Assembly: GCA_045105515.1 (NCBI GenBank)
Contig: JBGCDR010000074.1
Span: 8,827 to 72,826, forward strand
DNA from: Oligoflexales bacterium
Lineage (GTDB): Bacteria > Bdellovibrionota_B > Oligoflexia > Oligoflexales > Bog-1112
Reading direction: 5' to 3'
DNA length: 64,000 nucleotides
The notes beneath the pieces were generated by a model. The model was not told the origin of the DNA, made no database searches, and worked only from the letters and a program-made list of their open reading frames with translations. This document shows, in pieces, positions 1,257-42,984 of this stretch. Position 1 is the first letter of the stretch. The number at the start of each line of letters is the position of its first letter. The position numbers were made by a program, and so were the translations under genes.

Positions 1257-1300
1257 AATTATCTAAACTCAAATTAACTTGAATTTAGGCAAATCAATCT

Positions 1301-5289: not shown

Positions 5290-5325
5290 TAAATGCAAGA
5301 ATAACTACTCAAGTAATATATTTTC

Positions 5326-6891
5326 TCAGGTACTGGCTTTTCCAAGCTCTAAATTTCTAGCCTGCTCAACCTTGATACCGGCACTTTCTTGTTCTGCTTC
5401 CTGCTCACTTACAAGCTTTTCATATCGACGTCCAAGAGCTCTTGCACAGTAGATCCACCCTCCACATATCACTATAAAAATTGCTCCAACATAAGGAGCC
5501 ATAGCAATTGCAGAAGGTACAAATAACATTAAAAATTGCTGGATAAGGGATCCACCTGACTTACCTAGACGAGCAGCAACCACATCAATAGCTGCCTTCC
5601 CTTTGGTCTTAGACTCCTCATCCAAAGGGATATATGACATCTCTTTTGTTGGATCAAACAAGGAATACTTTGCTGATTTACTCATAATATTTTGTGCTGC
5701 ACCAAAAATCACAGCCATCATTAAAGGCGAAGTTCCCATCGTAGCTAAATATCCAATGAAAAAGTCCTTAAAGACTATAAAATTTAGAAAAAACACCCCG
5801 GTAATTAAAAGCACAACCGGAGTGACACATGCTGCAATCGACCAACCAAACCGTCTAATTACATTATGACTTACAAACAAAAACATGAATAATGTAACAA
5901 CTCCGGTCATAGTCGAAAAGTGCCCCATAAAATTGGTATATTCTGCAGGGTTTGGGTATGCCGCTTTAACTTGGCTCTTCCAAATTACTTCTATTAAATT
6001 GATTGAAACACCATATGCCATAACAATAAACGCTATACAACCTAAATATTTAGAACGCGAAAGATATTTAAGACTATCCTTGATACTCATCTTAGTCTTA
6101 TTTTTTTTCTTCTTAATCAAAGTTGGATCATAAAATTGGGGGTCAGAAAGAATAGATCTTTGCATGTAATAATAGGTGCCAATTATACATAAACCCGCTA
6201 TAAAAACCAAAAGCATTAACACTTGTAGAGACTGTGAATAAGGCCGACCTCCTGCTCCAGGTGCAGCCCATATAATGGCTCGCCCTGAGAAAATTAAAGC
6301 TATGTTTGCACCAATCCCTAACAAGCCATAGAACCTTTTAGCTTCACTTATTTTATTGATATCATTGGCAAAACCCCAAAACATCATAGACAGCACCATG
6401 CTTCCCCACATTTCAGCCAAAATATAGAAAAGTCCAAATGTCCAATTACGATATATCGCAACAATACCTTTTGCTGCTGCTGAACTTGGAAGTAGAGATT
6501 TTAAGAACTCAGCAGATTCAACTGGGTGTAAAATGTCTCTCAGTGGATATAAAACAAAGCCAAAAAGGGCAAAAAAACCAATAAAAGGGCAAATCATTGA
6601 ATAGAAGAGTTTTTCCTTACTAAGTGAATTACTAAGCTTAGAAAATATTAGCATCAAAATAATAGCAGAAGGAACAACACACCAAACTTTTAGAAAAGGA
6701 ATCGCCTCTGCTCCAGAGCCAGGAGCTGTAACAATCAGGGAGTCTTTGGTATCTCTTAAAATCGTATAATTGAATGAGATGCAAAAAAACATAAAAAACA
6801 TTGGAATGATTTTTTTTAGTTCATAAGAGTGGATAGGCCATAAAAGCGACCTAATTTTGCTAAATTCTTCAACATCAGATCTCGCTGACAT
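5326..6891 (-). CDS. tlc: TLC/NTT-family ATP/ADP translocase (nucleotide transport protein)
   Basis: FNYTILRDTKD, GAEAIPFLKVW, AEMWGS, FWGFAN, EAKRFY, EVIWK, KYSLFDPTKEMSYIPLD and KGKAAIDV..RLGKSGG motifs; about 12 TM helices; start moved to ATG 6891 after SD AAGGAG. Confidence 0.95.
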   Translation of the reverse strand: MSARSDVEEFSKIRSLLWPIHSYELKKIIPMFFMFFCISFNYTILRDTKDSLIVTAPGSGAEAIPFLKVWCVVPSAIILMLIFSKLSNSLSKEKLFYSMICPFIGFFALFGFVLYPLRDILHPVESAEFLKSLLPSSAAAKGIVAIYRNWTFGLFYILAEMWGSMVLSMMFWGFANDINKISEAKRFYGLLGIGANIALIFSGRAIIWAAPGAGGRPYSQSLQVLMLLVFIAGLCIIGTYYYMQRSILSDPQFYDPTLIKKKKNKTKMSIKDSLKYLSRSKYLGCIAFIVMAYGVSINLIEVIWKSQVKAAYPNPAEYTNFMGHFSTMTGVVTLFMFLFVSHNVIRRFGWSIAACVTPVVLLITGVFFLNFIVFKDFFIGYLATMGTSPLMMAVIFGAAQNIMSKSAKYSLFDPTKEMSYIPLDEESKTKGKAAIDVVAARLGKSGGSLIQQFLMLFVPSAIAMAPYVGAIFIVICGGWIYCARALGRRYEKLVSEQEAEQESAGIKVEQARNLELGKAST

Positions 6892-7177
6892 AAAAAACTC
6901 CTTTACGTAAGCTAATGCTTTAAATCTAAAAATACCCACTAAGAGCGGATCAATTTCCTTGTAATATTTTGGAATAGTGCATTCTCAAAAGCATTTAAAC
7001 TAATTTGTGTTTTAAAAAAAGGGGTTCTAAAAAATTGATAGCCAGTTGCATTGTTTTGCATTATAAATTCCACTTATTAGGGTTTGGAAATCCGTACCCA
7101 ATATGGTGGGGCAAACATAGCAGTAGAATTAAATCAGCGCAATGAAATAAAGCGGAAGAAGAATTTTCAATATTATT

Positions 7178-7795
7178 TTACGGTAAACTATTCAATTGAT
7201 CATAGATTTCTGTCAAAGGTAATCCCATGACATTTGTATATGAGCCTGAAATTTTTTGTACAAAGTAAGCCGCCTTTCCCTGAATTCCATAGGAACCGGC
7301 TTTATCCATGGGTTCTCCAGTTGCGACGTATGATTGTATTTCTTCTTGCGAAAGTCCCTTGAAAGTAACTTCTGTTACTACCACATCACTTATTAAGAAA
7401 AAATCTCCTTGAGCTTGTTTCTGGTAAGAAAAAGCAAAACCCGTCAATACTTGATGAGTTCTTCCCGACAACTGACTCAACATAGCAATAGCTTCACTAG
7501 CAGATTTAGGCTTTTGCAAAATTTCATCTTCCAAAACTACAACCGTATCTGCCCCTAGAACTACAAGTCTTTTTTCTGATGGATCTTCAGATGAGCTCGA
7601 ACAGATTTCACTAGCAACCCACTTCGATTTTCCTTCTCCATTTCTTCGGACGTAATCATTGGCTTTTTCATTTTCTTCTAGTCTCTCTTCGAAGCCAGGA
7701 CTCTTCAAAGTAAAACTCAAATTTAAACTTCCAAGTAACTCCCTACGCCTAGGTGATGTGCTAGCTAAAAAAAATTTATACGCATTCAAGTCCAT
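7178..7795 (-). CDS. maf: Maf nucleoside triphosphate pyrophosphatase (YhdE-like)
   Basis: LASTSPRRRELL, GADTVV, DKAGSYGIQG and NVMGLP motifs. Confidence 0.95.
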   Translation of the reverse strand: MDLNAYKFFLASTSPRRRELLGSLNLSFTLKSPGFEERLEENEKANDYVRRNGEGKSKWVASEICSSSSEDPSEKRLVVLGADTVVVLEDEILQKPKSASEAIAMLSQLSGRTHQVLTGFAFSYQKQAQGDFFLISDVVVTEVTFKGLSQEEIQSYVATGEPMDKAGSYGIQGKAAYFVQKISGSYTNVMGLPLTEIYDQLNSLP

Positions 7796-8094
7796 CTTTT
7801 ACCTACCTATGTCCATAATGAGATTTTTTTTATTTATTCAGAAAGATTAAAAAGAGCTAAAAATAATTCAAAAAAACAGATTTTCGGTTGATGAGATATC
7901 TTCCGGAAGAAGACACACCCCATACAAATATTTATGATATAAATTTATACGCCATAAATAAACCTCTCTTCCTGAAAGTAGGGTATTACATAAAAACCAT
8001 ATTTTTGTCGAGGATTATCAATACAGTTTTTTCGCAGAATTTCCTTGATTGAAAGAAATCTCACTAAGAAATATTGAGGAGTAGGATGCTTATC

Positions 8095-20000: not shown

Positions 20001-20960
20001 TTGCCTACTTTTGAACATAAGACTGTCCTTTTAAATGAGCTGGTGGATGCCCTGATACTTAAGGCTGGTGATACGGCTGTGGATTGCACAGCAGGTGGGG
20101 GAGGACACACATCCTTATTGCTTGAACGAGTAAGACCAACTGGAAAGGTCTTTGCTTGTGACAGGGATTTAAGAGCAATAGAAAGCTTGCAAGAAAAGTT
20201 TTATAAACAAATCGTAAATAATCAATTAGGCTTAGTCCATTCTCCTTTTTCCGATTTTACTAAATATATTCCACAAGAAGTCTCCATTCATGGAATCTGT
20301 GCTGACCTAGGAGTATCTAGCCCCCAACTTGACGAATCTAATCGAGGTTTTTCGTTTATGCGCGATGGTCCTCTCGATATGCGGATGTCTCCGGAATCCC
20401 AAGATCCCTCTGCTGCAGAAGTTATCGCAAATTACAGCTCCCAAGACTTAGAAAAAATCATAAGATCCCTAGGAGAGGAACCAAAAGCAAGATTTGTAGC
20501 TAACGCCATTGTAAAACAACGCGAAAATAGTCCAATAACTACGACTATTGAACTAGCTAACCTTGTAGCCAAGGCAATCCATTATAAGAAAAAAAGTAAG
20601 AAGCATCCTGCAACAAAAACTTTTCAAGCTCTAAGAATTTATGTCAACAAAGAACTTGAAGAGATAAGAATTCTACTTGAACAAGCGTTTGCCTGCTTGT
20701 CACCTGGTGGGAGGTTAGCAATTATCAGCTTTCACTCTCTTGAAGATCGGATTGTCAAAGATTTTTTCAAAGAAAAATCAGGAAAAAAGCCAGGGCAATC
20801 ACTCCCTCGCGACCTACCATTAACGGAATCTGAATTGAAATCTTTTCAAAACATTCAAGCTCGGATCATCAAGCCTTTTCCGATTATTCCAAAAGAGGAA
20901 GAAATTAGTTCAAATCCAAGATCCAGGAGCGCGAAACTACGAGTATTAGAAAAATTGTGA
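20001..20960 (+). CDS. rsmH: 16S rRNA m4C1402 methyltransferase
   Basis: HKTVLL, DCTAGGGGH, DLGVSSPQLD, FQALRI and NPRSRSAKLR motifs. Confidence 0.97.
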   Translation: MPTFEHKTVLLNELVDALILKAGDTAVDCTAGGGGHTSLLLERVRPTGKVFACDRDLRAIESLQEKFYKQIVNNQLGLVHSPFSDFTKYIPQEVSIHGICADLGVSSPQLDESNRGFSFMRDGPLDMRMSPESQDPSAAEVIANYSSQDLEKIIRSLGEEPKARFVANAIVKQRENSPITTTIELANLVAKAIHYKKKSKKHPATKTFQALRIYVNKELEEIRILLEQAFACLSPGGRLAIISFHSLEDRIVKDFFKEKSGKKPGQSLPRDLPLTESELKSFQNIQARIIKPFPIIPKEEEISSNPRSRSAKLRVLEKL

Positions 20961-20988
20961 AATAATAGGCTTCAGAAGGAGAAAACTT

Positions 20989-21273
20989 TTGAAGCGACCA
21001 AGTATACCTACTACACTTTTTCTTTATTTTTTTTTCGCTCTCATTCTTATTTTTTCATTCCTGCGCATTCATTCAAGGATTCAAATTACCTTACTAGGTT
21101 ACGAGATTGGCAGGATGAAAGAACGTGAAGCAGACCTAATTAAAGTCCGTAGTTTATTGACGATGGAACTCGCAAAAATTACTACCAAGGAGCATTTACA
21201 AGAAATTGTAGCCAACGATTTAAAGAAAAATGAAAAACAGCTAAATCAAAAATCTGCTTTCGCAAATAAGTGA
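20989..21273 (+). CDS. ftsL: Cell division protein FtsL-like
   Basis: Single TM helix followed by a leucine-zipper-like LGYEI..; sits between rsmH and ftsI. Confidence 0.75.
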   Translation: MKRPSIPTTLFLYFFFALILIFSFLRIHSRIQITLLGYEIGRMKEREADLIKVRSLLTMELAKITTKEHLQEIVANDLKKNEKQLNQKSAFANK

Positions 21274-21285
21274 TTATCAGTAAAA

Positions 21286-23013
21286 ATGATTAATAGAAAA
21301 ACAATAAAGCTAAGATCCGATTATATTTCCAGCATATTTAAGATCCTATTTAGCCTTCTTATCCTCCGAGCAATCATGATCCAACTATTTCCCAGCTCAG
21401 CCAACCTGCTACAGCACATAGCAGATAAACAGTATCAATCTGCTATCGGTCTGTCGGCATTTAGAGGAAACATTTACGATCGTCGTAAAGCTCCTCTTTC
21501 AATAAGCATCAAAACCCCTTCTGTTGCGATTAACCCCAAAGTTTTTGACCCAAGCAATCAACAGTTGGGAAAACTCAGCCAAGTCTTGGGATTGTCGAAA
21601 AAAAAGATTAGAGCGCTTGCCAAAAAACCAAAATACTTTGCTTGGCTAAAACGCAAAATATCTTATCAAATAGCAGAAAAACTAAAGAAATTGGAACTCA
21701 AAGGGATGCATTATGTCTTGGAGCCTTCACGTTATTATCCTGGTGGTAGGGGAGCTGCAAACCTATTGGGATATGTGGGAATTGATAATGTGGGCCTCTT
21801 AGGCCTAGAACATGCTTTTGACCAGGAACTTCAAGGAACCTCCTCCAAACTAATCAGCTTAAAAGATGCTAGAGGTCATCTCATTTTAATGAATGCTGAA
21901 CAGATCACTCCTGAGAAAACAGGAAGTAACATCATTTTAACCTTAGATCGTGCCATTCAAGGAATTGCGGAAGAAGCCCTCCAAAGAGGTATCAAAAAGA
22001 GTGAGGCTAAGATCGGCTTTGCTATTGTGATGGACCCACATACTGGACGCATCTTAGCAATGGCAAACCACCCAAACTTCAACCCAAACAATCCATCACA
22101 CTTAAAAATGGCTCATACTGTCAACCATTCCATTGCTTATCGCTTTGAACCTGGCTCGGTCATGAAACCATTTGTTGTTGCATGGGCAATTGAAAATCGA
22201 AAAACCAGCCCTTTCGAAATTCATCACTGTGAAAAAAATGGAAGGTATGAAGTCAGCGATAATTTATTCATTCATGACGACCACCCCAAAGAATTTCGCA
22301 CTACCGAAGAAATTCTCATTCACTCAAGTAATATTTGTACCTTTAAGGTGGCGTTGAGAATCGGGCAAAAAAACTTATTTGAATCCCTAAAGAAATTTGG
22401 GTTTGCCAGTGATAAGCCAATAATAGGGCTTCCTGGTGAAACCACTGGATCAATTGCAGCTGCAGATACATGGAGCCCCATCAGGTTTGCTAATATATCA
22501 TTTGGGCAAGGACTTCTCGTTACCGGTTTGGAAGTGATTCAAGCCTACGCCAGTATAGCTAATGGAGGAAATCTGATTAAACCATACTTGGTAGAAAGGG
22601 TTGAGTCATCAAATGGCCATATCCTCCAAGACTTCAGCCCAATCATTGAACGCAGAGTTTTAAGCCCTCAAACTGCCCACCATATTGCTAGAATCTTAGA
22701 AAAAGTGGTCTTAGAAGGAACTGCAACACGGGCAAGAACAAAATCTTACTCAACAGCAGGCAAAACAGGGACAGCTGAAAAAATTGATCCTTTGACAAAA
22801 TCCTACGCAAATAACAAAAGAATAGCCAATTTTGCAGGTTTTGCACCTGTTTCAGACCCACATATTGCAGTGTATGTTGTGTTGGACGAACCACAAAAAA
22901 AACCCTACTACGGAGGGCTTTGGGCGGCACCAGTATTCAGCGAAATTGTCGAAAAAACCCTTAAATATTTGAATGTCGCACCAGACCTAAATGCCACCCA
23001 CCCACAGAGTTAG
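21286..23013 (+). CDS. ftsI: Division transpeptidase PBP3/FtsI
   Basis: RGNIYDR, EPGSVMK (SxxK), SSN and KTGT motifs; dcw context. Confidence 0.95.
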   Translation: MINRKTIKLRSDYISSIFKILFSLLILRAIMIQLFPSSANLLQHIADKQYQSAIGLSAFRGNIYDRRKAPLSISIKTPSVAINPKVFDPSNQQLGKLSQVLGLSKKKIRALAKKPKYFAWLKRKISYQIAEKLKKLELKGMHYVLEPSRYYPGGRGAANLLGYVGIDNVGLLGLEHAFDQELQGTSSKLISLKDARGHLILMNAEQITPEKTGSNIILTLDRAIQGIAEEALQRGIKKSEAKIGFAIVMDPHTGRILAMANHPNFNPNNPSHLKMAHTVNHSIAYRFEPGSVMKPFVVAWAIENRKTSPFEIHHCEKNGRYEVSDNLFIHDDHPKEFRTTEEILIHSSNICTFKVALRIGQKNLFESLKKFGFASDKPIIGLPGETTGSIAAADTWSPIRFANISFGQGLLVTGLEVIQAYASIANGGNLIKPYLVERVESSNGHILQDFSPIIERRVLSPQTAHHIARILEKVVLEGTATRARTKSYSTAGKTGTAEKIDPLTKSYANNKRIANFAGFAPVSDPHIAVYVVLDEPQKKPYYGGLWAAPVFSEIVEKTLKYLNVAPDLNATHPQS

Positions 23014-23465
23014 TTGCCAGTCCAAATCTGATCCCAGCCAGCTTCACTGTAACTAATTCCATGCAAACAGTTCATGATTCCTTCTCGAACATATGGAATG
23101 GTATTTTCTGGCAAGGCACCAATGGAAAAGTATTTTAGCTCAGAACATTTACCTGGTTCTCTATTTATAAATTTTTCTTGTAAGTCCTTACATAAAAAGA
23201 AAATATCGGCACTTTCTCGATCATCAGACTTACGATGAATAACTGAAGCCAGCTGCAAATCACGTGGATTTAGTTTTAATCCGGCTTCTTCATAGGCTTC
23301 CCTCATCATGGCCTGCATAAAGGTTTCTCCACCTTCTACGTGACCTGCAACCAAACCATACCAACCATCCGCAAATCCTGTATTTTTCCTCAAAGATAGC
23401 AAGACCTTATTCTGGTCCATCAAAACTAGGTATACAGCTGGGATAACACTAAAACGCTTTTTCAC
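23010..23465 (-). CDS. NUDIX hydrolase
   Basis: Nudix box GHVEGGETFMQAMMREAYEEAG; NREPGKC motif. Confidence 0.9.
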   Translation of the reverse strand: MKKRFSVIPAVYLVLMDQNKVLLSLRKNTGFADGWYGLVAGHVEGGETFMQAMMREAYEEAGLKLNPRDLQLASVIHRKSDDRESADIFFLCKDLQEKFINREPGKCSELKYFSIGALPENTIPYVREGIMNCLHGISYSEAGWDQIWTGN

Positions 23466-23658
23466 ACGCCCCCTCTCTTCGATAAGCTAGGAGTTTACTA
23501 GAAAATGGAGAAAGCAAAACCATACAAGCCCAAGCCCAAGCCCAAGAGCTTGATTGCCGATTTGCAAGTTCGCCGTCGATCACATATCTTATAGATTTCT
23601 CGTTCAGATGAACAACCTTGACTCCCAAAAATATTCTATTCTATTGAGAAATAGCTTC

Positions 23659-25200
23659 ATGACCTACTTTGAAAAAGATCTCATTCTTAACCTAAAACTT
23701 GCATATGAGCATTTAAAACAACAGGATTGTGTAAATGCCCAAGGTCTATTTCCATGGGAGAGTGGCCTGCAAGGTAAGGGTAGAATTATAAGTGATTCCA
23801 GACAAATAAAAGCCGGAGACATTTTTATTGCCTATGAAGGGCTTAGAACAGATTCTCATGAATACATCCCCGAAGTACTCAACAAAAAACCAGGATTGAT
23901 CATAGCTGAAAAACCATCTTCTTTAGAGGAAGAAAGCCAAAAAGCTCCTATTCTATTGGTTAATAATTCAAGAAAAGCGTGGTCTTACCTTTGTGCCTTA
24001 GCATGTGGAAACCCACAAAATGAATTAACAAACATAGCAATTACAGGAACCAATGGAAAAACCAGCAGCCTTTGGATGCTGAAATCTCTTTTTGAATCCC
24101 ATAATATTCCCTATGCTACCATTGGGACACTCGGTATTTACCTCAATGGGGATCAGTTTAGGACCTCCCACACAACTCCTGATCCCCCTATTCTCTACTT
24201 AAGCCTAAAGTTAGCCTTGGAAAAAGGCGTCAAGATTCTTGCGATGGAGGCCTCATCTCATGCCATTGCTCAAGAAAAATTAGCCCCCATCCGTTTCAAT
24301 TGTATTGCATGGACGAGTTTTTCTCAGGACCATCTTGATTTTCATAAAACTATGGATGCGTATTGGAAAGTAAAATGGAGCCTGTTTCTTAAATCTCTAG
24401 CACCAGGAGGAAGGGCGATCATCAATACAAGCATAAGTCCTATTCCTCCTTACGAAAAACTTGCATGCCAAGACATCGTCACCTATGGACTGGGCAAGAG
24501 CACATTGAAACCTCTGATGGCCGTGTCTCAGATTGCAACAGGGAATGGGGGATCTGATGTCTATTTGAGCTATAAAGGAAGTGAGTTTCACTACCAGATC
24601 CCTTATTGGGGAAGCCATAATGTAGAAAATTTCCTCTGCGCACTCGGGGTTTATGAGAAAGCTGTTGGGAAAATGCCATCGCCACGCAAAACCATTGATT
24701 TGAGTGGAGTTCCTGGACGCCTGCAAAAAGTACCATCGAAAAAATTGAATGCTCCTTGCGTTCTGATTGATTACGCCCATACTCCAGACGCCCTTGAAAA
24801 GACTATTGAAACCATCAAACCCTACTGCAGTGGAATGGTGTATGTCGTATTCGGTTGCGGAGGGGAGAGAGATCGAAATAAACGCAAAAAAATGGGGCTG
24901 ATTGCAGAAACACTCGCCGACAAGGTTGTACTCACTTCTGATAACCCTAGAAACGAGCCTGCAGAAAAAATTTTAAAAGATATTCAGAGGGGATTTTTAA
25001 AGAGCCAACCTGTTATGATAGAAGATAGAAAGTCTGCAATAGCATGGTCCATTGAATACGCGAAAAAAGATGATTTTATTCTAGTAGCTGGAAAAGGCCA
25101 TGAAAACTATCAGATCATTGGATCAAAGGTGTTTGAATTTGATGATTTTCAGGTGGCAAAAGCTATTTTAGACTCCGAAGAAGAGGAGAATATACCGTGA
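23659..25200 (+). CDS. murE: UDP-MurNAc-dipeptide:meso-DAP ligase
   Basis: DSRQ, TGTNGKT, HTTPD, MEASSH, DHLDFH, DYAHTPD and DNPR (DAP specificity); probable start 23659. Confidence 0.95.
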   Translation: MTYFEKDLILNLKLAYEHLKQQDCVNAQGLFPWESGLQGKGRIISDSRQIKAGDIFIAYEGLRTDSHEYIPEVLNKKPGLIIAEKPSSLEEESQKAPILLVNNSRKAWSYLCALACGNPQNELTNIAITGTNGKTSSLWMLKSLFESHNIPYATIGTLGIYLNGDQFRTSHTTPDPPILYLSLKLALEKGVKILAMEASSHAIAQEKLAPIRFNCIAWTSFSQDHLDFHKTMDAYWKVKWSLFLKSLAPGGRAIINTSISPIPPYEKLACQDIVTYGLGKSTLKPLMAVSQIATGNGGSDVYLSYKGSEFHYQIPYWGSHNVENFLCALGVYEKAVGKMPSPRKTIDLSGVPGRLQKVPSKKLNAPCVLIDYAHTPDALEKTIETIKPYCSGMVYVVFGCGGERDRNKRKKMGLIAETLADKVVLTSDNPRNEPAEKILKDIQRGFLKSQPVMIEDRKSAIAWSIEYAKKDDFILVAGKGHENYQIIGSKVFEFDDFQVAKAILDSEEEENIP

Positions 25201-26597
25201 AATTAACTTGGAATGACTATTCACATTGCTTCGAATCAGATGCCACCGCGCTCATTGGCCGCAACGTAAAAGCGCCTAGCATCGAGCACTGGAACACTGA
25301 CTCGCGGAAAATCCAATCTGGTGATTGGTTCATTCCTTTGGTCGGAGAGAACTTTAATGGCCACCAATTTATAGAAGCTGCTCTAAGGCAAGGTGCTAAA
25401 GGCTATATCTATGAAGAACGATACACCCAACATTTGAGCTCTTCACACAAAGAAAAAGGGATTTTAGTCCAAGACACCTTGCTAGCATTTCAAAACCTTG
25501 CAAGGCTTTGGCGCTTAAAACATAAAAATTTAACTTTGTTCGCTCTAACCGGTTCAGTAGGAAAAACGACTACGAAAGAAATGTTAGCGACCATTCTTGC
25601 TTCAATAGAGCCAAAGACTTTATCGACTGCAGGTAATTTTAACAATGAGGTTGGTGTACCTATTACCTTGCAGAGAATCAAGGAGGACCATAAATTTGCT
25701 GTAGTGGAAATGGGAGCACGTAGACCGCTCGACATTGGCAAGCTAGTGGATATTGCCAAGCCCAATATAGCAGCCTGCCTTAATGCCAAGACTGCTCATA
25801 TCGAGATTTTTAAATCTAAAGATGCCATATTAAAAACGAAGCTCGAAATATTTAACTCTACCTCAGAGCTGAAGCACATAGTTTTTAGCCACGATGACGA
25901 GAGGATTCGTACCAATTGTGAATATTTAGAGGTGCCTAAAACCAGCTTTGGATATCAAACTGGGGCAGACATGCTTATTAAAAATCAAGATTGGCATCAT
26001 GATGGCAGCCTTGCCACCATGATCTGCTTCCAAGGTAAGGAATTTCAATTGAGATTTTCCCAAGGGCACTCAGCATACCCGATCAATGCAGCAGCTGCGC
26101 TCGCTATGGGTGCTGCTGCTGGCTTAAATATTGAGACCATGATTGAAGCGCTCACTAGTTTTACAGGGCTTGAAGGTCGATTTAATATCTTCAAAAAAGA
26201 TGAATTGACCATCATTGACGACTGTTACAATGCCAATCCAGATAGCATGAAAGAAGGTATCAATACCTTAGTCCAACGTTACCCACAACAAGCTAAAGTT
26301 GTCATTCTAGGAGACATGCTTGAGCTTGGTCAGAATGCAAATATCGAGCACAGCCAATTGGGTTCGTATTGCAAAGCCCAAGTAAATCCTCTTTTCTTAA
26401 TTGGGATTGGTGAACACTCAAAGCTTATTGTCGACAAAGCCATTTCAGAAGGTCTGCCTAAGCATCAAACTCTAAGTTATGGTGATGTCGAGGACTTTCT
26501 CAACGCTAACGTTGATTTAGGTGCGAAAGGACAAGTAGTCTTTATTAAAGGGTCAAATGGAGTCCATTTAGACCGTATAGTCGAACATTACTGCTAA
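25197..26597 (+). CDS. murF: UDP-MurNAc-tripeptide:D-Ala-D-Ala ligase
   Basis: TGSVGKTTTKE, GNFNNEVGVP, DDCYNANPDS and LGDMLELG motifs. Confidence 0.95.
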   Translation: MKLTWNDYSHCFESDATALIGRNVKAPSIEHWNTDSRKIQSGDWFIPLVGENFNGHQFIEAALRQGAKGYIYEERYTQHLSSSHKEKGILVQDTLLAFQNLARLWRLKHKNLTLFALTGSVGKTTTKEMLATILASIEPKTLSTAGNFNNEVGVPITLQRIKEDHKFAVVEMGARRPLDIGKLVDIAKPNIAACLNAKTAHIEIFKSKDAILKTKLEIFNSTSELKHIVFSHDDERIRTNCEYLEVPKTSFGYQTGADMLIKNQDWHHDGSLATMICFQGKEFQLRFSQGHSAYPINAAAALAMGAAAGLNIETMIEALTSFTGLEGRFNIFKKDELTIIDDCYNANPDSMKEGINTLVQRYPQQAKVVILGDMLELGQNANIEHSQLGSYCKAQVNPLFLIGIGEHSKLIVDKAISEGLPKHQTLSYGDVEDFLNANVDLGAKGQVVFIKGSNGVHLDRIVEHYC

Positions 26598-26615
26598 CCA
26601 ACTGCGAGTAAAACT

Positions 26616-27692
26616 TTGATTTATCATTTTCTATATCAATTTGTGGATGATTGGGGCGCATTAAATGTAACCCGTTACATCACTTTCAGATCGATAGTTT
26701 CTTTATTGTCAGCCCTAATTATTAGCTTTATTTTTTCTCCATGGTTTATTCGTAAGCTCAAGGTAAAACAGATTGGCCAAGTAGTAAGAGACGATGGACC
26801 ATCTAGTCACTTCTCCAAGGCCGGTACTCCAACAATGGGTGGAGGACTTATAATTCTTGCGGTGACTATTCCCTGCTTATTGTGGATGGATTGGCTCAAT
26901 CACTATTTGTGGTTATCTCTTACGATATTTGCCGGTTATGGCTTGTTAGGGTTCTGGGATGACTACAGTAAAATTAGCAAAAAAAATACAAAAGGTGTTT
27001 CAGGACGAGGTAAGCTCGCCTGGCAAATTGGAATTGCTACATTTGCATGCACTTTTCATTATTTCTACGGCAATGAATCTGGTGTAGTCAACTTCCCATT
27101 TTTCAAAGATACCAATTTGCCATTAGGCCATCTCTATATTCCTTTTGGAGTTTTCATCATTGTTGGAGCAAGTAATGCTGTCAATCTTACTGATGGGCTC
27201 GATGGGCTTGCAATTGGCCCAGTGATGATTTCTGCAGCCTGTTTTGCTGTTTTAGCATATGTATCTGGAAACTATTTTATGGCCGAATATCTGCACTTTC
27301 CCTTCGTCAAAGGAAGTGGCGAACTTACAATTTTTGCTGCAAGTATTGTTGGGGCTGGCATGGGTTTTCTATGGTACAACACCTATCCAGCCCAGGTCTT
27401 TATGGGAGATGTCGGTTCGCTCCCTCTCGGAGGTGCTTTGGGAGCTCTTGCCGTATTTTCAAAGCACGAACTTCTTTTAGCAATCATTGGCGGTGTGTTT
27501 GTTCTAGAGGCCATATCCGTAATCACTCAAGTAGGCTCCTATAAGCTAACAGGAAAACGAATTTTCCGCATGGCCCCTATCCATCATCACTTTGAACTAA
27601 AAGGATGGCCAGAGCCTAAGGTGATCGTACGCTTTTGGATCATTTCAATTGTTCTTGCCATGGTTGGCCTTCTTAGCCTCAAAATTCGATAG
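26616..27692 (+). CDS. mraY: Phospho-MurNAc-pentapeptide transferase
   Basis: KAGTPTMGG, NAVNLTDGLDGL, FMGDVGS and MAPIHHHFE motifs. Confidence 0.97.
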   Translation: MIYHFLYQFVDDWGALNVTRYITFRSIVSLLSALIISFIFSPWFIRKLKVKQIGQVVRDDGPSSHFSKAGTPTMGGGLIILAVTIPCLLWMDWLNHYLWLSLTIFAGYGLLGFWDDYSKISKKNTKGVSGRGKLAWQIGIATFACTFHYFYGNESGVVNFPFFKDTNLPLGHLYIPFGVFIIVGASNAVNLTDGLDGLAIGPVMISAACFAVLAYVSGNYFMAEYLHFPFVKGSGELTIFAASIVGAGMGFLWYNTYPAQVFMGDVGSLPLGGALGALAVFSKHELLLAIIGGVFVLEAISVITQVGSYKLTGKRIFRMAPIHHHFELKGWPEPKVIVRFWIISIVLAMVGLLSLKIR

Positions 27693-27707
27693 CTTCACGG
27701 GGTTTTT

Positions 27708-28994
27708 ATGACATGGATGGTTTTAGGGGCTGGCCGCTCTGGCATAGCAGCTGCTAAATTGCTTGCAGCCAAAAAGCACAAGGTTGTATTGACGGACCAG
27801 AGGATAATACCAAGCTCTACAAAAAAAGATCTAATTGATTTGGGTATAGATCTTAGGGATCAAGATGAGGGAAACTCATTATGCAGCACTATTACCTCCG
27901 GAATAGTGCTTAGCCCAGGAATAACTCAAACACACCCTTATATTAAGAAAGCGAAGCAACAAGGCCTCCCAACTGTAAGTGAAGTGGAATTAGCCTTATC
28001 TTACTATAAAGGGATAGTAATCAGTGTTACTGGAACAAATGGTAAGTCGACGACCGTATCAATGGCATACCATCTGCTTAGGCAAATGGGCTATAATGCA
28101 GCTCTAGCTGGAAATATTGGGACACCCCCTTCAGAAATTATTCGTGATAAGCCTCATCCCAAAATCATGATATTAGAGCTTTCTTCGTATCAACTAGAGC
28201 AATCCAGTGAGATTCGATCGCAGGTTGCTGCAATCCTTAATTTGATCCCCGATCATCTAGCACGTCATGGATCTCTAGAACAATATTTGTTGGAGAAATG
28301 GAAGTTAGTTCTGATGTGTCCAAAAGATTCTCATGCCTTAGTAGACTCCCAAGTCTTTAGCATGGCTTCGCAACTTAGACAGCCACAATGTCATTTGCAG
28401 GTTATCGACCCTAATTTGGCAATCGCTCAAGTGGACCCTAACGAATCAGGGCAGCATGAATGGCATAACCGACTCAATGGATTCTATGCTGCATCATTAG
28501 TTGCACAGCTAATTGAAACCTCTGTATCTCGAGTAATTCCATATCTTGCTTCTTACAGAGGGCTCTCCCATCGATTTGAAAAAATTGGTACAATTAATGG
28601 TGCCACAGTCATAAATGACAGCAAGGCCACAAATGTTGACTCTACTTTAGTTGCTCTATCAAACCTACATAAAGCAACAGTTCTGCTCATTGGAGGGCAG
28701 GGTAAGGGAGAGAGTTTTACAGCTGTTAAAAAGTATCGCAGTCTAATCCAGAGTTTAATCGTATTTGGGCAGGAGGCTCCAAAGATCGTTGAGGAATTGA
28801 AGGAGATGAACCCTATTGTGTACCCAAGCCTTAAGACTACCATGGATGCCTTACCCGGGATTTTATCGCTGAGCGTAAGCAATCCTGATTTACTTTTTTC
28901 ACCTGCATGCGCGAGCTTTGATGAGTTCAAAAATTTTGAAGAACGTGGAGAATACTTCAAAAGTAAAATAAAATCTCTACTAGATATCCAATAG
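27708..28994 (+). CDS. murD: UDP-MurNAc-L-Ala:D-Glu ligase
   Basis: GAGRSG, TGTNGKST, ELSSYQL, NDSKATN and SPACASFD motifs. Confidence 0.95.
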   Translation: MTWMVLGAGRSGIAAAKLLAAKKHKVVLTDQRIIPSSTKKDLIDLGIDLRDQDEGNSLCSTITSGIVLSPGITQTHPYIKKAKQQGLPTVSEVELALSYYKGIVISVTGTNGKSTTVSMAYHLLRQMGYNAALAGNIGTPPSEIIRDKPHPKIMILELSSYQLEQSSEIRSQVAAILNLIPDHLARHGSLEQYLLEKWKLVLMCPKDSHALVDSQVFSMASQLRQPQCHLQVIDPNLAIAQVDPNESGQHEWHNRLNGFYAASLVAQLIETSVSRVIPYLASYRGLSHRFEKIGTINGATVINDSKATNVDSTLVALSNLHKATVLLIGGQGKGESFTAVKKYRSLIQSLIVFGQEAPKIVEELKEMNPIVYPSLKTTMDALPGILSLSVSNPDLLFSPACASFDEFKNFEERGEYFKSKIKSLLDIQ

Positions 28995-28996
28995 CT

Positions 28997-30127
28997 ATGG
29001 AACGTACACCAAAAGCAAATCACCACCGTTACCTATTAGCTACAACTGCTATTTTAATAGCAATTGGTTTGCTATCTCTCTATGCAGCTTCAGCTATGAA
29101 GGGTGCTGAACTCTACGAGAATTCTTTTTATTTTATGGAAAAACAACTTTTTGCAATCGGTATCGGTATCGGACTTATCCTTTGGTTCAAGTTTATTTCC
29201 TTCAAATTTATCGAACATTTAGCCCTTCCCCTCCTAGTTATGAGTATACTGCTGCTAAGCCTTATCCTAATCCCTGGGGTGTATAAATCTGTAGGAGGTG
29301 CGGCAAGGTGGATAAATTTGGGATTTGCAAGTTTTCAACCATCAGAATTAGCCAAGTTCGGACTTATTTTCTTTTTAGCAAAGAACCTTAGCAGAGAAAA
29401 AAATGATGTCACAAACTTCAGACGGGGAATCTTACCAAATTTACTTGTCCTCATGCTTTTTGTGATTTTTCTCATGCTGCAACCAGATTTTGGAACTACG
29501 GTTTTACTGGTTTCTATCACATTTTTAATGATTTACATTTGTGGAGCAAGCTATCATTTCATCATTGCTTCAGCTATATCAACAATAAGTCTTGGAATTC
29601 TTGGCATCATGTCAGCACCATATCGTTGGAAGCGCCTTACTAGCTTTATAGACCCTTGGAATGACTTCAAAGAAGGGGGATTTCAAATCATCCAAAGCTA
29701 CCTTGGTTTCCAAAATGGCGGAGCTCTGGGAGCTGGTTTAGGAGAATCTAGACAGAAGTTGTTTTTTTTACCTGAGGCACATACCGACTTTATATTATCG
29801 GTAATTGGTGAAGAAATGGGTCTTTTAGGTTCCCTATTAATTTGTACTCTTTATTGGAATATGATTCGTATCGGATTTAGGATTGCTAGTATTCATACAG
29901 ACCACTTTAAAAAATTGCTTGCATTCGGTTTAACCTCCCTGATAGCACTTCAATCTGTTTTCAATATTGGTGTGGTGACTGGAATACTACCAACAAAAGG
30001 AATTCCGCTACCCTTTATTAGCAGTGGGTTGAGCTCCCTTCTTATTTTCTTTACCGTGATTGCGGTACTAGCACGTCTCGGACAGGAGGTCCCAAACATT
30101 GATGCAAGAAAGCAACAAACCGGCTAA
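28997..30127 (+). CDS. ftsW: SEDS peptidoglycan polymerase FtsW
   Basis: GGAARWI, FQPSELAK, QPDFG, LPEAHTDFI and GIPLPFIS motifs. Confidence 0.95.
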   Translation: MERTPKANHHRYLLATTAILIAIGLLSLYAASAMKGAELYENSFYFMEKQLFAIGIGIGLILWFKFISFKFIEHLALPLLVMSILLLSLILIPGVYKSVGGAARWINLGFASFQPSELAKFGLIFFLAKNLSREKNDVTNFRRGILPNLLVLMLFVIFLMLQPDFGTTVLLVSITFLMIYICGASYHFIIASAISTISLGILGIMSAPYRWKRLTSFIDPWNDFKEGGFQIIQSYLGFQNGGALGAGLGESRQKLFFLPEAHTDFILSVIGEEMGLLGSLLICTLYWNMIRIGFRIASIHTDHFKKLLAFGLTSLIALQSVFNIGVVTGILPTKGIPLPFISSGLSSLLIFFTVIAVLARLGQEVPNIDARKQQTG

Positions 30128-31541
30128 ATCTCTCCACTTTATCGGAATTGCTGGGAGTGGTATGTGTCCTCTAGCAATTTTAGCAAAATCAAAAGGGTAC
30201 CAGATTACTGGAAGCGACCTTGGAAGCGGTAGAAATCTATCTTTGCTGAAAAATAGCGATATCAAGGTCTTTGCTGAGCACAGAGAGCAGAATGCCTATA
30301 ATGCCAACGCCCTGGTAGTCTCATCAGCAATAAAACACGATAACCCCGAAATTCAATGGGCACTTAGAAAAAACATACCGATCTATCACCGTTCTGACCT
30401 TTTGGCAGAGTTAGCTAAACCTTACCACCTAATTACTGTGGCTGGGACCCATGGAAAAACTACCACTTCAGCGATCTTAAGCTACCTCCTTGATATTCTC
30501 AAGCAAGACCCAATGGCTGTTGTGGGAGGGCACATGCATCATTTCGATGCCTCTTGGCACCTTGGAAAAGGTAAATACTTTGTCGCTGAAGCAGATGAAT
30601 CAGATGGAAGCTTTCTTAAATATCATCCAAAAACAGCTATTTTGAACAATATTGACAAGGACCATTTGGATCACTATGGCGATTTCAAGGGTGTTAAAGA
30701 AGCATTTAGAAAATATCTGAACAATATCAACGACGATGGTATAGCAATAATTTCTGTTGACGACGAATTCTCTTATGCTGCATACGACAAATATCAAGGT
30801 AAAAAAATCTCATATGGCAGTCTACGGGATTGTGACTTTCAGGCATCTTCAATACAAATCGATGGCCAATATGTTAGTTTCCAACTGAAGCATAAAGGTA
30901 CTCAATTTAACTGTAAGTTGAAATCCATAGGTCTTCACAATGTATCTAATGCTTTAGCTGCACTTGCCGCAGTCAAATCGCTTGGGTTATCAATAGACTG
31001 CGCAATTAAGGCCTTAACTAGTTTTCCCGGTGTATCTAGAAGGTTGTCAATAATCCACGAGAGCCCTTCAATTACAATCATAGATGACTACGCTCACAAT
31101 CCCGGTAAAATCGTGGCAAGTATCAAGGCTGTTCATAACTCTTTTGTTAATCATGATGTTTTTGTAATTTTCGAGCCTCACCGATTCAGTCGATTAGATA
31201 CAATGTATAATGAATTTATACACTCTTTTACTAAGGCAAGTCAGGTTTACGTAACTCCTATTTTTGCTGCAGGAGAAAAACACAGTGACCAACACAACCC
31301 CAATACTATAGCAGAAGATATACAAAAATCTTCATCTGTGGATTCTTATCCCTACCTAAATGAGGAACAATTAATTAGAGACATCTCGCATAGGAATCAC
31401 ATAAAGTCGGTTATTTTGACAGTAGGTGCAGGTGACTCGAGTAAAATCGCTTTCGCTATTAAAAGGTATACTATTGCCAAACAAAAAAATACATCTTCAA
31501 AAGGAACTCCTTCGCAGTCAGAAGCTGAAAAAAAGGAATAA
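30102..31541 (+). CDS. murC: UDP-MurNAc:L-Ala ligase
   Basis: HFIGIAGSGM, AGTHGKTTTS, EADESDGSF and DDYAHNP motifs. Confidence 0.95.
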   Translation: MQESNKPAKSLHFIGIAGSGMCPLAILAKSKGYQITGSDLGSGRNLSLLKNSDIKVFAEHREQNAYNANALVVSSAIKHDNPEIQWALRKNIPIYHRSDLLAELAKPYHLITVAGTHGKTTTSAILSYLLDILKQDPMAVVGGHMHHFDASWHLGKGKYFVAEADESDGSFLKYHPKTAILNNIDKDHLDHYGDFKGVKEAFRKYLNNINDDGIAIISVDDEFSYAAYDKYQGKKISYGSLRDCDFQASSIQIDGQYVSFQLKHKGTQFNCKLKSIGLHNVSNALAALAAVKSLGLSIDCAIKALTSFPGVSRRLSIIHESPSITIIDDYAHNPGKIVASIKAVHNSFVNHDVFVIFEPHRFSRLDTMYNEFIHSFTKASQVYVTPIFAAGEKHSDQHNPNTIAEDIQKSSSVDSYPYLNEEQLIRDISHRNHIKSVILTVGAGDSSKIAFAIKRYTIAKQKNTSSKGTPSQSEAEKKE

Positions 31542-32316
31542 ATTATTAGTAAGCCGTAAAAAAATAGTAAATTTCAGCTTCTTAATTATCATAATTGGCT
31601 TATGTGTTTTTTCTTTTAGGTATCTAACAGTATTAATAAAAAGTGATCTAAAATCAATAAATTCTCAAGAATGGGAAATATTTTTTAACCACAAAAGTTC
31701 TATTTCAAAGAAAGATGAGGATCGCATTGAAAACATTTTTGCTAATTTTCTATTGAATGATCAATCACCAGACTTGAAAGAAATAAGTCGTGAGTTTTTA
31801 AAAGATTCTGAATTCAGTAGATTACACCTTTTCAAGTTTCATCCTTTCAAAATTTACATTAGTTTAAGTAAACATAGACCAGTATTTAAGATTCAATTAG
31901 ATGTATCTAGGTTTGTTTCAGACGATGGTATCATTTATGGGCTTGCAAGAGGCTCGCAACTGCCGGAGTTGTCCGGTGATTTTTTTCCTGATGATAAAAT
32001 TTTTTCATTCAAAAATAGCAACGAGATTGAGATTTCTCATATACAAAGGGCTCGATTTTTAGAAGCCGTTGAATTAATAAATGATGCAAAACAAGAAAAC
32101 ATTATGCTTAAGGAAATAATTTTTAAGAAATATCGAGGATATTTTGCAAGCTTGACGGAAACTGGTACTGTAATTTCTTTTGGCAGAAGACCATTCAGAG
32201 GTAAAATTAAAAAGCTAAGAAAAATTTTATACAAACTGTCAACAAGAGGACAAAAAGCCTCACAAATAGAACTAGACTTCGAAGACAAAGCATTTATCAA
32301 AGAGTATAAACTATAA
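31474..32316 (+). CDS. ftsQ: Divergent FtsQ/DivIB
   Basis: Basic N-terminal tail, single TM, C-terminal ASQIELDF; position before ftsA; start uncertain (TTG 31474, ORF open from 31426). Confidence 0.7.
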   Translation: MPNKKIHLQKELLRSQKLKKRNKLLVSRKKIVNFSFLIIIIGLCVFSFRYLTVLIKSDLKSINSQEWEIFFNHKSSISKKDEDRIENIFANFLLNDQSPDLKEISREFLKDSEFSRLHLFKFHPFKIYISLSKHRPVFKIQLDVSRFVSDDGIIYGLARGSQLPELSGDFFPDDKIFSFKNSNEIEISHIQRARFLEAVELINDAKQENIMLKEIIFKKYRGYFASLTETGTVISFGRRPFRGKIKKLRKILYKLSTRGQKASQIELDFEDKAFIKEYKL

Positions 32317-32330
32317 AAAAAGATGACCAC

Positions 32331-33563
32331 ATGAAACCTAACAATGTATTTGCCCTCGATTTAGGAACTACAAAATTCTGCTTTGGAAACATCAAGTTTA
32401 ATAATCCTGGATGCCCTCCTAGTATCGAAACCATTAGCGTCAATGCTGGGGGTATGCGTAGAGGAATGTTAGCAGATTTCGAGAAGGCTAAACAATCTCT
32501 TCTGACTCTAATTGATATTGCTGAATCAGAATTCAATACCAATATTATTAAGGTAGTTGTTGGAATCGCAGGATCACATTTACAAAGCAATATTTTCAAA
32601 ACAAAAATACCAGTACAAAACCAAGTTGTTAAAGACGCTACTTTAGAAGCACTAAAGATCCAGGCTATGAAGCAAAAACCTAGTTTCCACAAAGAAAACT
32701 TACATGCTATTCCATTAAGTTATTTTCTTGATGAGAGAGAAGCTACTAACGCTCCAGAAGGGTTCTCTGCTGATTTTATCACAGGAAAATTTTTTAGAAT
32801 TGAGGCTGACAAACATTATTTAAATGATGTTATTAACCTCTGTAACCACTGTGGATTAGAAGTAAAAAATCTGTATGCTGAACCTTATGCTTCAGCGTGT
32901 GCCACCTTAACCGAAGAAGAAAAACAATATGGTGTAATGATAGCTGATATTGGAGGAGGAACTACGGACGGAATTATATTTCACCAAGGTTTGCCGACTC
33001 GTCTTTTTACAATTAATATCGGAGGCATGCTCATGACGCATGATCTTGCGATAGGCCTCGGTATCCCCTTCGAAACAGCTGAACATCTAAAGCTAAGTAT
33101 TGGACTAGACCGAACGAAACTAAACCAGCAAATAGTTGCTAATAATCTACAAAATAAAGAAATTCGTATTTCAAATGAAGATCTATATATGATTCTATTT
33201 TCTCGGGTTTTGGAACTTTCCACCTTGATTAAACAACACTTAGATTCACACAACTTCCCATTGAAATCTGGCCTTGTCTTAACAGGTGGGGGTTCTGATG
33301 TTCAAGGTATTGAAAAAATGATGAGTTATATTCTGAAAATACCTGTAAGAAGATCATTACCTAACCCCTGCAAACAGCTAAAGCTTGACATTAAGGATCA
33401 GAAAGCTTTCGAACAAAGGCAACTAGCTAGTAAATATTCAACTGTATCAGGTATGCTGATTCTAGAACAATTAAAAAACCTAAGAAAAAATCCAGGTTTA
33501 AAGCACGGTGTCTTCGAAAAATACTTCCAAAACTTTATATCTTGGGTAAAAGAACTAAGCTAA
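32331..33563 (+). CDS. ftsA: Cell division protein FtsA
   Basis: LDLGTTK, GMRRG, DIGGGTT, AEHLK and VLTGGGS actin-like motifs. Confidence 0.92.
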   Translation: MKPNNVFALDLGTTKFCFGNIKFNNPGCPPSIETISVNAGGMRRGMLADFEKAKQSLLTLIDIAESEFNTNIIKVVVGIAGSHLQSNIFKTKIPVQNQVVKDATLEALKIQAMKQKPSFHKENLHAIPLSYFLDEREATNAPEGFSADFITGKFFRIEADKHYLNDVINLCNHCGLEVKNLYAEPYASACATLTEEEKQYGVMIADIGGGTTDGIIFHQGLPTRLFTINIGGMLMTHDLAIGLGIPFETAEHLKLSIGLDRTKLNQQIVANNLQNKEIRISNEDLYMILFSRVLELSTLIKQHLDSHNFPLKSGLVLTGGGSDVQGIEKMMSYILKIPVRRSLPNPCKQLKLDIKDQKAFEQRQLASKYSTVSGMLILEQLKNLRKNPGLKHGVFEKYFQNFISWVKELS

Positions 33564-33580
33564 ATCTAGCTGTCAGAGCA

Positions 33581-33610
33581 TTGACACCCTCTTCTCCTCC
33601 TATCTATAAT
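33581..33610 (+). promoter_or_regulatory. Sigma70-type promoter for ftsZ
   Basis: TTGACA-N18-TATAAT, both hexamers exact consensus, 57 nt upstream of the ftsZ ATG. Confidence 0.75.
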
Positions 33611-33667
33611 AATTGTAAAGTAATTCTAATAAACACCAAATAAAAGACCAGCCATTAGGAGAAGCTT

Positions 33668-35305
33668 ATGGCATTTGACCCACAAGAGGTATCCGCTCCA
33701 GGAGCTAAAATTAAGGTTGTTGGCGTAGGAGGGGGGGGAACCAATGCTGTAAGCACTATGATTCGCTCAAATATAGAAGGCGTCGAATTTGTTGCAGCTA
33801 ACACTGACGTTCAATCCCTTCGTTTTGCATTGGCTCCGAATAAGATTCAGATTGGAAAAGAACTAACGAAAGGCTTAGGAGCAGGGGCCGACCCTGACAT
33901 CGGCCGAGATGCTGCCCTTGAAGACAGACATGAGCTTCAAGAAACTCTCGGTGGATCAGATATGGTCTTCGTCACAGCTGGTATGGGTGGCGGAACTGGT
34001 ACCGGAGGAGCTTCTATTGTCTCACAAATCGCAAGAGAAAACGGAGCCTTAACTGTAGGAGTAGTTACCAAACCATTTTCCTTTGAGGGCAAAAGAAGAA
34101 AGAAACATGCTGAGCTGGGGATTGCTCGTTTAAAAGAACACGTTGACACTTTAGTAGTCATTCCGAATGACCGCTTGTTAAAAATCGCAACTCCAGACTT
34201 GAGCATGTTGGAAGCTTTTAAGATGGCAGATACCGTACTAGTCAATGCGGTAAGAGGCATCAGCGATATTATCAATATTCCTGGCACGATCAATGTTGAT
34301 TTTGCGGATGTTAAGACTGTGATGTCAAGCATGGGGCATGCTTTAATGGGAATAGGAACAGCTACCGGCGACAACAGAGCAAAGGAAGCAGCACTACAAG
34401 CGATTTCATCACCCTTACTTGAAGATGTCGATATCGAAGGTGCTACCGGGATCCTAATAAATATCACAGCAGGTGAAAAAATATCCCTCGTAGAAATAAA
34501 CGAAGCATGCTCCATCATAGAGGACGCTGCCCATGAGGATGCAAATATCATCTTTGGAGCTGTTATTGATGAGAACATGAAAGATTCAATTAGAATTACC
34601 GTTATTGCAACAGGTTTTCCAACCACTGAAGATGAAGATTTTATGGTTTCAGAGAGAGAAGGTTCAGCGAGTAGTACTTACTTTCGTCGAAGCTCTCGCA
34701 CGGGAGCATCCAGTAAAATTAGCAATCCTGCCAGAGAAATGAGCTTTAACTCAATTTTGAACGAAGCTAAAGAAGAAAGTACTACTCCCCCAGTACAACA
34801 GACTGAAGTTACCCAAGACCATCATATTAAGGAAGAAACTGAGGAGCAGCACGGTATCAGTCATATCGATGACTCAGACCTGGCAAGGTTTACACTTGAT
34901 CAGGTGGCTCAATCTTCTCAACCAGGAGTTGAAGATACAATCACAGCCGAAAATCTGAAAACTGAACCTGAAATTGACCTTGTAAAAAGTCCAATAGAAC
35001 ATTCCCAAGCGACTGATAACTTGACACAGAAATCTATGATAAAAAGCCCACCAAATGAATCGCTGAAGAAAAGCGTACAATTAGAAGCTGCGACAAAAAA
35101 GCTAGAAGACCAAGCAAATGAGCTCTCATCCCCCGATGACGACTTCTTTTTAGATGATGGTAACCAGCTAACAGATGATATTGATAGAAGAATTGATGAG
35201 GCACTAGAATTAGCAGAAAAAGTTCGTTCTCTAGATAGCAAAGAAGACGATCTTGATGTTCCAGCTTTCTTGAGAAATAATCACAAAGATATCAACCTAA
35301 CTTAA
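33668..35305 (+). CDS. ftsZ: Cell division GTPase FtsZ with a long acidic linker
   Basis: GGGTGTG tubulin signature, INVDFAD and C-terminal LDVPAFLR. Confidence 0.98.
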
Positions 35306-37561: not shown

Positions 37562-37993
37562 TTAAAACTTGATGCCTTTTTTCGTGATCTTCAACAAAGA
37601 TTTTCTTGCTCTTGCTCGTGTTAGTGCAACTAGCGCTCGACCAATATCGATATCTTTGTTAGTGGTCTTTGCTAAACGCTCCATAGCACGCTTCTCAGCC
37701 TGCAAGACCCTTTCATGGTCAATCTGCTCAGGACTCTCTATTACCTCAACCATTACGGTGGCATGCTCTTCAGAAACCTGCAAATAACCACCAGACACGA
37801 AATAATGGAAATCTTGCTGTTCTGTCGAATTTACTACCTTTAATATTCCTGGTTGCAAAGCAGTCAATAAAGCTGCATGTCCAGGGAGTATACCAAGTTG
37901 ACCTTCGCTTCCTGGAGCTTCCAGAATGGAGGCTTCTAAGTTAGCTAGTGGCTTTTCTGGTGACAGAATTTTCACCTTAAATGCACCTTCCAT
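37562..37993 (-). CDS. atpC: ATP synthase epsilon subunit
   Basis: GQLGILPGHA and VSGGYL motifs; operon position. Confidence 0.95.
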   Translation of the reverse strand: MEGAFKVKILSPEKPLANLEASILEAPGSEGQLGILPGHAALLTALQPGILKVVNSTEQQDFHYFVSGGYLQVSEEHATVMVEVIESPEQIDHERVLQAEKRAMERLAKTTNKDIDIGRALVALTRARARKSLLKITKKGIKF

Positions 37994-38014
37994 ACACAGC
38001 CTCCTTTCCTTAAT

Positions 38015-39460
<1,446 letters not shown>

Positions 39461-39498
39461 TTAACTAAAAAAACACCTTCCAGGGTCTACAACCCTGT

Positions 39499-41900: not shown

Positions 41901-41906
41901 GTCCCT

Positions 41907-42446: not shown

Positions 42447-42465
42447 ACCCTAAATCCTTCATTTT

Positions 42466-42972: not shown

Positions 42973-42984
42973 TCAAAAACCCTT

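Follow-up and report, generated by a model that had tools for sequence, protein, structure and literature searches.

An intact Npt1-type nucleotide transporter gene, one of six NTT paralogues, in an Oligoflexales genome with retained nucleotide-synthesis markers

Introduction

Genes for nucleotide transporters of the NTT (TLC) family are commonly read as the mark of an intracellular lifestyle. The closest described system for the gene analysed here is the Npt1-type carrier PamNTT1 of Protochlamydia amoebophila, which prefers the import of ATP in exchange for ADP, independent of the membrane potential (PMC1951785). In PamNTT1 both the co-transport of phosphate (Pi) and the bias towards ATP import depend on lysine K446, and a counter-exchange of ATP and ADP with Pi co-transport is described for PamNTT1 and only a handful of other carriers (PMC2606016). 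The substrate specificity varies widely within the family, and NTTs are also reported for many free-living bacteria and for the predator Halobacteriovorax marinus (Major et al. 2017, PMC5381601). By the same report, the premise of the initial annotation of our gene, that stand-alone NTTs mark only endosymbionts, is outdated.

No literature linking Oligoflexales or Oligoflexia with NTT transporters was found. Crossman et al. (PMC3526173) contains no passage on nucleotide transporters, a protist single-cell paper (PMC12644861) does not mention the lineage, and a paper on Aiptasia (PMC10701089) connects Oligoflexales with the density of algal symbionts on 16S data only. Here we describe an NTT gene from an Oligoflexales genome and add the Npt1-type identity of this copy, the distribution of NTTs across the whole bacterial family and the metabolism that is retained beside them.

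Results

The analysed window is a stretch of 64,000 nucleotides (positions 8827-72826 of contig C74) of a draft genome. The 461 contigs of this genome total 6.29 Mb, and it is 90.9% complete with an estimated contamination of 4.83%. On its minus strand 5326..6939 forms one open frame, which gives a protein of 537 aa from a GTG start and of 521 aa from an internal ATG at 6891. A Shine-Dalgarno motif AAGGAG, read from the sequence, is located 6 nt before this ATG (6898..6903, minus strand), the GTG lies inside a terminator-like hairpin between the upstream maf gene and the transporter gene (6934..6950, minus strand), and the orthologue in an independent Oligoflexales MAG (L077/L009) begins at the equivalent Met. 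Therefore, the ATG was taken as the start and the gene as 5326..6891 (minus strand, protein P0001). The scan for terminator-like hairpins found two sites where 1.9 were expected, so that the hairpin is weak evidence taken alone, and a promoter scan remained at chance level (8 found, 8.1 expected).

The product is an NTT/TLC nucleotide transporter of the Npt1 type according to Pfam, NCBIfam, a structure match and the tree. The single Pfam family found is TLC (PF03219, E 2.5e-203, 676.8 bits at a cut-off of 21), and as it spans residues 7-490 on profile positions 5-491 of 491, the transporter is without a HEAT or other extension. The NCBIfam model TIGR00769, 'NTP/NDP exchange transporter', gave 642.5 bits at a cut-off of 387.2, and the protein thus belongs to the family by full-length matches above both curated cut-offs. 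In a control search for TLC none of 14 well-known genomes matched, which argues against a background family. NTT proteins carry four conserved intramembrane charged residues, Lys, Glu, Glu and Lys. All four are present in the transporter as K68, E160, E301 and K444, in the motifs FLKVW (at residue 66), AEMWG (159), IEVIWK (300) and RLGKSGG (441). With the full-length match to a sole Pfam family and all four motifs in place, the complete NTT without HEAT extension that had been read from the letters alone is borne out.

A crude Kyte-Doolittle scan gave 11-12 hydrophobic segments, in agreement, together with the alignment to the solved structure 9j3n_A, with a polytopic protein of about 12 helices. 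This structure, 'ADP,ATP carrier protein 1', aligns near end-to-end with the transporter (E 1.2e-186) and scores 624.7 bits for the window copy versus 483.6 bits for the next-best paralogue. Chloroplast NTT1 (9j3j_A) also aligns nearly end to end, with an E-value of 2.2e-149.

The relation to other NTTs was analysed in two tree runs. FastTree was run on 233 rows, namely 6 from the genome itself, 40 from the Oligoflexales family and genome G128, 17 from five chlamydial genomes, 150 representatives, and 9 named and 11 close matches, where the representatives were drawn from a profile search finding 1310 clusters at E<=1e-30. A careful IQ-TREE run on 37 rows (13 of the Oligoflexales clade, 18 named chlamydial Npt1-type proteins and 6 outgroup rows from the clade of paralogue C181) left out about 100 further matches and most representatives. 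In the latter the Oligoflexales clade of the window copy has a support of 100/99 and is united with chlamydial Npt1 at 99/99, and the FastTree run agrees. The window copy sits with the named chlamydial Npt1 proteins and is therefore assigned to the Npt1 type. An alignment of 17 named chlamydial Npt1-type proteins has 189 invariant columns, of which the window copy keeps 167 (88%) and has the remaining 22 changed; the other five paralogues of the genome keep 99-140. The identity of the window copy to chlamydial Npt1 is only 55.6-59.8%, slightly lower than the minimum of 59.3% for the chlamydial proteins. In the alignment with a Protochlamydia sp. orthologue, K444 of RLGKSGG falls on K445, and the equivalent of PamNTT1 K446 and AtNTT1 K527 is present.

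The direction of the transfer may have been either way, and on these trees the Oligoflexales clade may be nested among chlamydial sequences or be sister to them. The protein next to the clade of the window copy (P0257) and the one next to the clade of paralogue C190 (P0298) are chlamydial. A branch that sets the named chlamydial rows apart from all others was present in only 2% of the 200 bootstrap trees, but an AU test did not reject a tree in which these rows are kept together (p 0.189, lnL difference 1.7). When 8 chlamydial loci with 8-kb flanks were searched, none of nine other window genes tested was found and the transporter alone was in common. The horizontal acquisition suggested by the initial annotation fits these data in the form of an exchange, with the clade joining chlamydial Npt1 and only the transporter shared between the loci.

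The carrier is not a lone one. In all, six full-length TLC genes encoding 473-530 aa were counted in the genome (contigs C74, C181, C166, C40, C393 and C190), and the other five share 32-46% identity with the window copy. Two weak TLC-like open reading frames, on C286 and C410, reached 26.6-28.7 bits with TIGR00769 and were not counted as NTTs. In the FastTree of 233 NTTs the six paralogues fall into six separate clades, each paired with an orthologue from the same genus. K68, E160 and K444 are invariant in all six, and at position 301 four of them have Glu and two Asp. The weight that had been placed on the GKSGG Lys holds as far as this residue is tied to the gamma-phosphate of ATP and to Pi (PMC2606016); being invariant in all six, however, it does not single out the window copy. 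The clade of the window copy is represented in 4 of 16 genomes of the family (G000, the genome analysed here, and G001, G006 and G010), so this copy is dispensable within the family.

The transporter gene is old, under purifying selection and in its native place. An independent Oligoflexales MAG (L009) is collinear with window positions 1-7330 in two blocks, one of 4193 nt and one of 3199 nt, with a nucleotide identity of about 75.5%, and its transporter has 91% protein identity to that of the window. Three metagenome runs contain the stretch, all from one study with the label 'plant metagenome' and possibly the source of this DNA; no RNA run is listed among them. In two of the three a single contig (24.9 kb and 70.9 kb, respectively) bridges window positions 3500-8500 with 0 differences and covers both junctions, and the third has two contigs of equal depth that overlap inside the transporter gene. 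Compared with the orthologue of the same genus, pN is 0.060 and pS 0.763, with synonymous sites saturated, which gives a pN/pS of 0.079. The GC content of the contig (0.397) and its tetranucleotide make-up lie inside the single cloud of the genome, and the GC3 of the transporter gene (0.305) lies within the range of its neighbours (0.286-0.376). Because of the collinear MAG, the bridging contigs, the low pN/pS and the typical composition the gene is regarded as native and not chimeric.

A chlamydial gene that was binned or mis-joined into the genome could have been suspected from the contamination estimate and the 461 contigs of the bin, and from the nearest named relatives of the transporter outside the lineage, which are chlamydial. 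However, the same 72.8-kb contig carries dnaA, gyrBA, the F1Fo genes and the dcw cluster, gene order recurs in the independent MAG, two per-run contigs cross both junctions, GC, GC3 and tetranucleotides are typical, and the nine neighbouring genes tested are not found in the 8 chlamydial loci. We therefore reject such an artefact, to which we give next to no credence, and with it the possibility left by the initial annotation that the contig is chimeric at this position.

Directly upstream of the transporter and on the same strand lies a gene for a Maf-like nucleoside-triphosphate pyrophosphatase (7178..7795, minus strand; Pfam Maf, E 8.4e-60). The same adjacency and orientation is found in G010, which belongs to a different genus, and in G001, where it is cut by a contig end, and is absent in G006, so that maf is directly upstream in three of the four genomes carrying this transporter copy. 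A further locus listed for the pair is L075 6914-9231. Maf may be a functional partner, perhaps a clean-up enzyme for imported nucleotides, or the adjacency may be due to chance.

As noted initially, the window contains both F1Fo and cell-wall machinery. By Pfam, the ATP synthase genes atpF'-F-H-A-G-D-C are located at 37562..43416 and atpB, for the a subunit, at 46555..47334, all on the minus strand, and a division and cell-wall cluster mraW-ftsI-murE-murF-mraY-murD-ftsW-murC-ftsA-ftsZ at 20001..35305 on the plus strand. The window also holds dnaA-dnaN-gyrB-gyrA and pyrG. The chromosome-partition genes parA-parB (43643-45422) lie between atpB and the other atp genes and thus split the atp cluster, beside dnaA. 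The lowest cumulative GC skew (-1.84) falls at dnaA-dnaN (about 48-50 kb), which is consistent with a replication origin. Between ftsW and murC of the dcw cluster no gene was recognised as murG-like, a NUDIX gene is located on the opposite strand between ftsI and murE, and the open reading frame in the FtsQ position (31426-32316) has no Pfam match at E<=1e-5. Four further open reading frames of 206-363 aa, 8095-8715 (minus), 357-1256 (plus), 1301-2191 (minus) and 58723-59814 (minus), gave no Pfam or NCBIfam match, and 357-1256 and 1301-2191 are conserved in the relative of the same genus.

Among the 120 GyrB matches listed, those with names come from Deltaproteobacteria, Bdellovibrionota, Oligoflexus and Oligoflexales at 66-68%, and none of them is chlamydial. 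Together with the collinear Oligoflexales MAG this supports the Oligoflexia-like organism proposed at first. The best named matches of the transporter are one Oligoflexales MAG (63%) and then Chlamydiota (55-62%). In a metagenome relative, the transporter (P0003, 81%) and GyrB (P0125, 77%) both have a longest contig of 65424 bases, which hints at a linkage as in the window.

Strong NTT matches were found in all 15 other genomes of the Oligoflexales family. Elsewhere in the order only short weak matches were obtained, in 7 of 25 genomes, the best with an E-value of 7.3e-9. At E<=1e-30, 17 of the 131 genomes of the phylum set match, comprising 16 of 16 from the family and 1 of 115 outside it. 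Judged by these matches, NTTs are a lineage trait of this Oligoflexales family, which its sister families are without. The initial annotation had left room for a placement of the genome in a known NTT-bearing clade: the whole family does carry NTTs, but no paper was found that describes it as NTT-bearing. The sole NTT outside the family (G128, contig C3, 14394-15857; locus L047) is in one of 33 genomes of another family of the class. It groups with the G008_C11 protein and not with the window copy, and may stem from a separate transfer.

Metabolism was assessed by seven markers of nucleotide pathways and one of respiration, mostly in four genomes of the family. purF, purH, purA, guaA, OMP decarboxylase, ribonucleotide reductase and COX1 were each found in 5 of 5 genomes (G000, G001, G008, G014 and the NTT-less G027). 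The gaps in purine and pyrimidine synthesis that had been expected were not found, with six nucleotide markers in every one of these genomes and pyrG in the window. An obligate energy parasite would have lost nucleotide synthesis and/or oxidative phosphorylation; since all eight markers, which cover nucleotide synthesis, ribonucleotide reduction and respiration, are present, and the markers recur in the analysed genome and in 3 of 3 family members, this organism is not of that kind.

Flagellin genes are present in G000, G001 and G027, and no flagellin matches were found in G008 and G014 (2.6 and 2.9 Mb). Genomes of the genus of the window are 4.6-6.3 Mb in size, and the other 14 of the family 1.8-4.0 Mb. 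Genome size and flagellin may describe a reduction gradient within one NTT-bearing family. Each of the 15 other family genomes has ankyrin-repeat matches (1-122 per genome), versus 11 of 25 genomes from the remaining families of the order. High numbers, 33 and 111 matches, are also found in an NTT-less family of this order, and the repeats, which are enriched in the Oligoflexales family but shared with others, were rejected as a host marker. An association with a host during some stage is plausible, for which the ankyrin repeats and the 'plant metagenome' label of the runs that are possibly the source are hints, and the organism may live in or on eukaryotic cells.

Discussion

We consider it somewhat favoured, with a probability of roughly 0.55, that the window copy is an ATP/ADP(+Pi) exchanger that stems from an exchange with chlamydiae and would be used opportunistically on a host or prey cell. 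Most likely, an inner-membrane transporter of the Npt1/NTT1 type would swap external ATP for internal ADP and phosphate via a single binding centre. Its gene would have reached or left an Oligoflexales family by an old exchange with chlamydiae, and is now a native gene under selection, one of six diverged NTT paralogues. The transporter would top up ATP while the cell is inside or attached to another cell, be it a eukaryotic host or bacterial prey, and would replace no lost pathway. As respiration, F1Fo and the markers of its own nucleotide synthesis are retained, the transporter would therefore be an opportunistic tool. Among the six paralogues the window copy is probably the ATP/ADP(+Pi) exchanger, a substrate and direction that we infer because 167 of 189 Npt1 columns are kept and K444 corresponds to the Lys that handles Pi and ATP in PamNTT1. 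However, specificity has shifted within the NTT family before, and the substrate of the window copy could therefore differ.

Alternatively, the protein would be an importer of building blocks with a broader or different specificity, for example for several NTPs, dNTPs or a cofactor, which saves the cost of synthesis by drawing on prey or host debris and involves no transfer of energy. Divided labour is suggested by the six paralogues with their 32-46% identity to the window copy, the wide variation of specificity in the family (PMC5381601) also points this way, and so do the 22 changed Npt1-invariant columns and the Maf-type NTP pyrophosphatase directly upstream in three of four genomes with this copy. 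Against this, the grouping with chlamydial Npt1, supported at 99/99, is peculiar to the window copy among the six paralogues, and 88% of the Npt1-invariant columns are kept together with the Lys that handles Pi and the gamma-phosphate; we hold the import of building blocks to be unlikely. The opposite direction of energy flow has also to be weighed, in which a respiring cell with F1Fo exports ATP to its host cell, a role that has been proposed for respiratory endosymbionts, or to its own periplasm. The genome does have F1Fo and COX1, the direction of an exchanger is set by the gradients, and 'Candidatus Azoamicus' is a published precedent for energy supply to a host (PMC7969357). However, the closest characterised relative strongly prefers ATP import and is described with one functional orientation only (PMC1951785), no gene for an exported kinase or phosphatase adjoins the transporter, and a genus with a large genome and multiple flagellin matches is unlike a dedicated energy organelle. 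An export of ATP is thus quite improbable.

A bolder extension of the opportunistic ATP/ADP exchanger concerns the whole Oligoflexales family, which might be an unrecognised cell-exploiting lineage with a chlamydia-like kit of up to six NTTs including a true ATP/ADP exchanger, and in which energy parasitism would precede genome reduction. This is a tentative proposal, and on balance we doubt it. Cells of the genus studied here retain respiration, flagellin genes and nucleotide-synthesis markers. If the proposal is true, the transporter came first and the losses later, and the smaller genomes of the family, of which the two tested are without flagellin matches, would represent later stages.

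In any case, strong selection maintains a canonical Npt1-type gene in a large genome for which every marker tested indicates metabolic capability. If the family exploits a host or prey, its genomes from 6.3 Mb with flagellin down to about 2 Mb would form a graded series in which it can be tested whether nucleotide import precedes metabolic loss, and the family would be a new partner in the gene traffic centred on chlamydiae. If there is no such exploitation, the case warns against inferring a lifestyle from an NTT gene.

Comparison with Known Systems

Halobacteriovorax marinus and other 'deltaproteobacterial' carriers of NTTs (PMC5381601) resemble the present case in that the former is a Bdellovibrio-like predator relative and not a classical endosymbiont. 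However, the Halobacteriovorax NTT is placed together with diatom NTT5-8 and Simkania NTT4, in a group apart from Npt1 (PMC5381601). Plastid AtNTT1 (PDB 9j3j/9j3l/9j3m) belongs to the same family with the same architecture and shares the K527-equivalent Lys (PMC2606016), but it is more distant than the chlamydial protein, has a transit peptide and imports ATP into an organelle.

The environmental chlamydiae with their multi-NTT sets likewise have diverged paralogues, with 2-4 strong matches in each of 5 genomes versus six here. The six paralogues of the Oligoflexales genome fall into six clades, only some of which have chlamydial neighbours, and the set is not a copy of a chlamydial one. The closest counterpart of the window copy is chlamydial Npt1/NTT1 (PamNTT1 of Protochlamydia amoebophila; PDB 9j3n/9j3o), which it resembles in its full-length match, shared clade, 167 of 189 columns and K446-equivalent Lys, as well as in its length and the lack of an extension. 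Unlike the reduced genomes of obligate intracellular chlamydiae, however, the Oligoflexales genome is a respiring one of 6.3 Mb with flagellin genes and markers of nucleotide synthesis.
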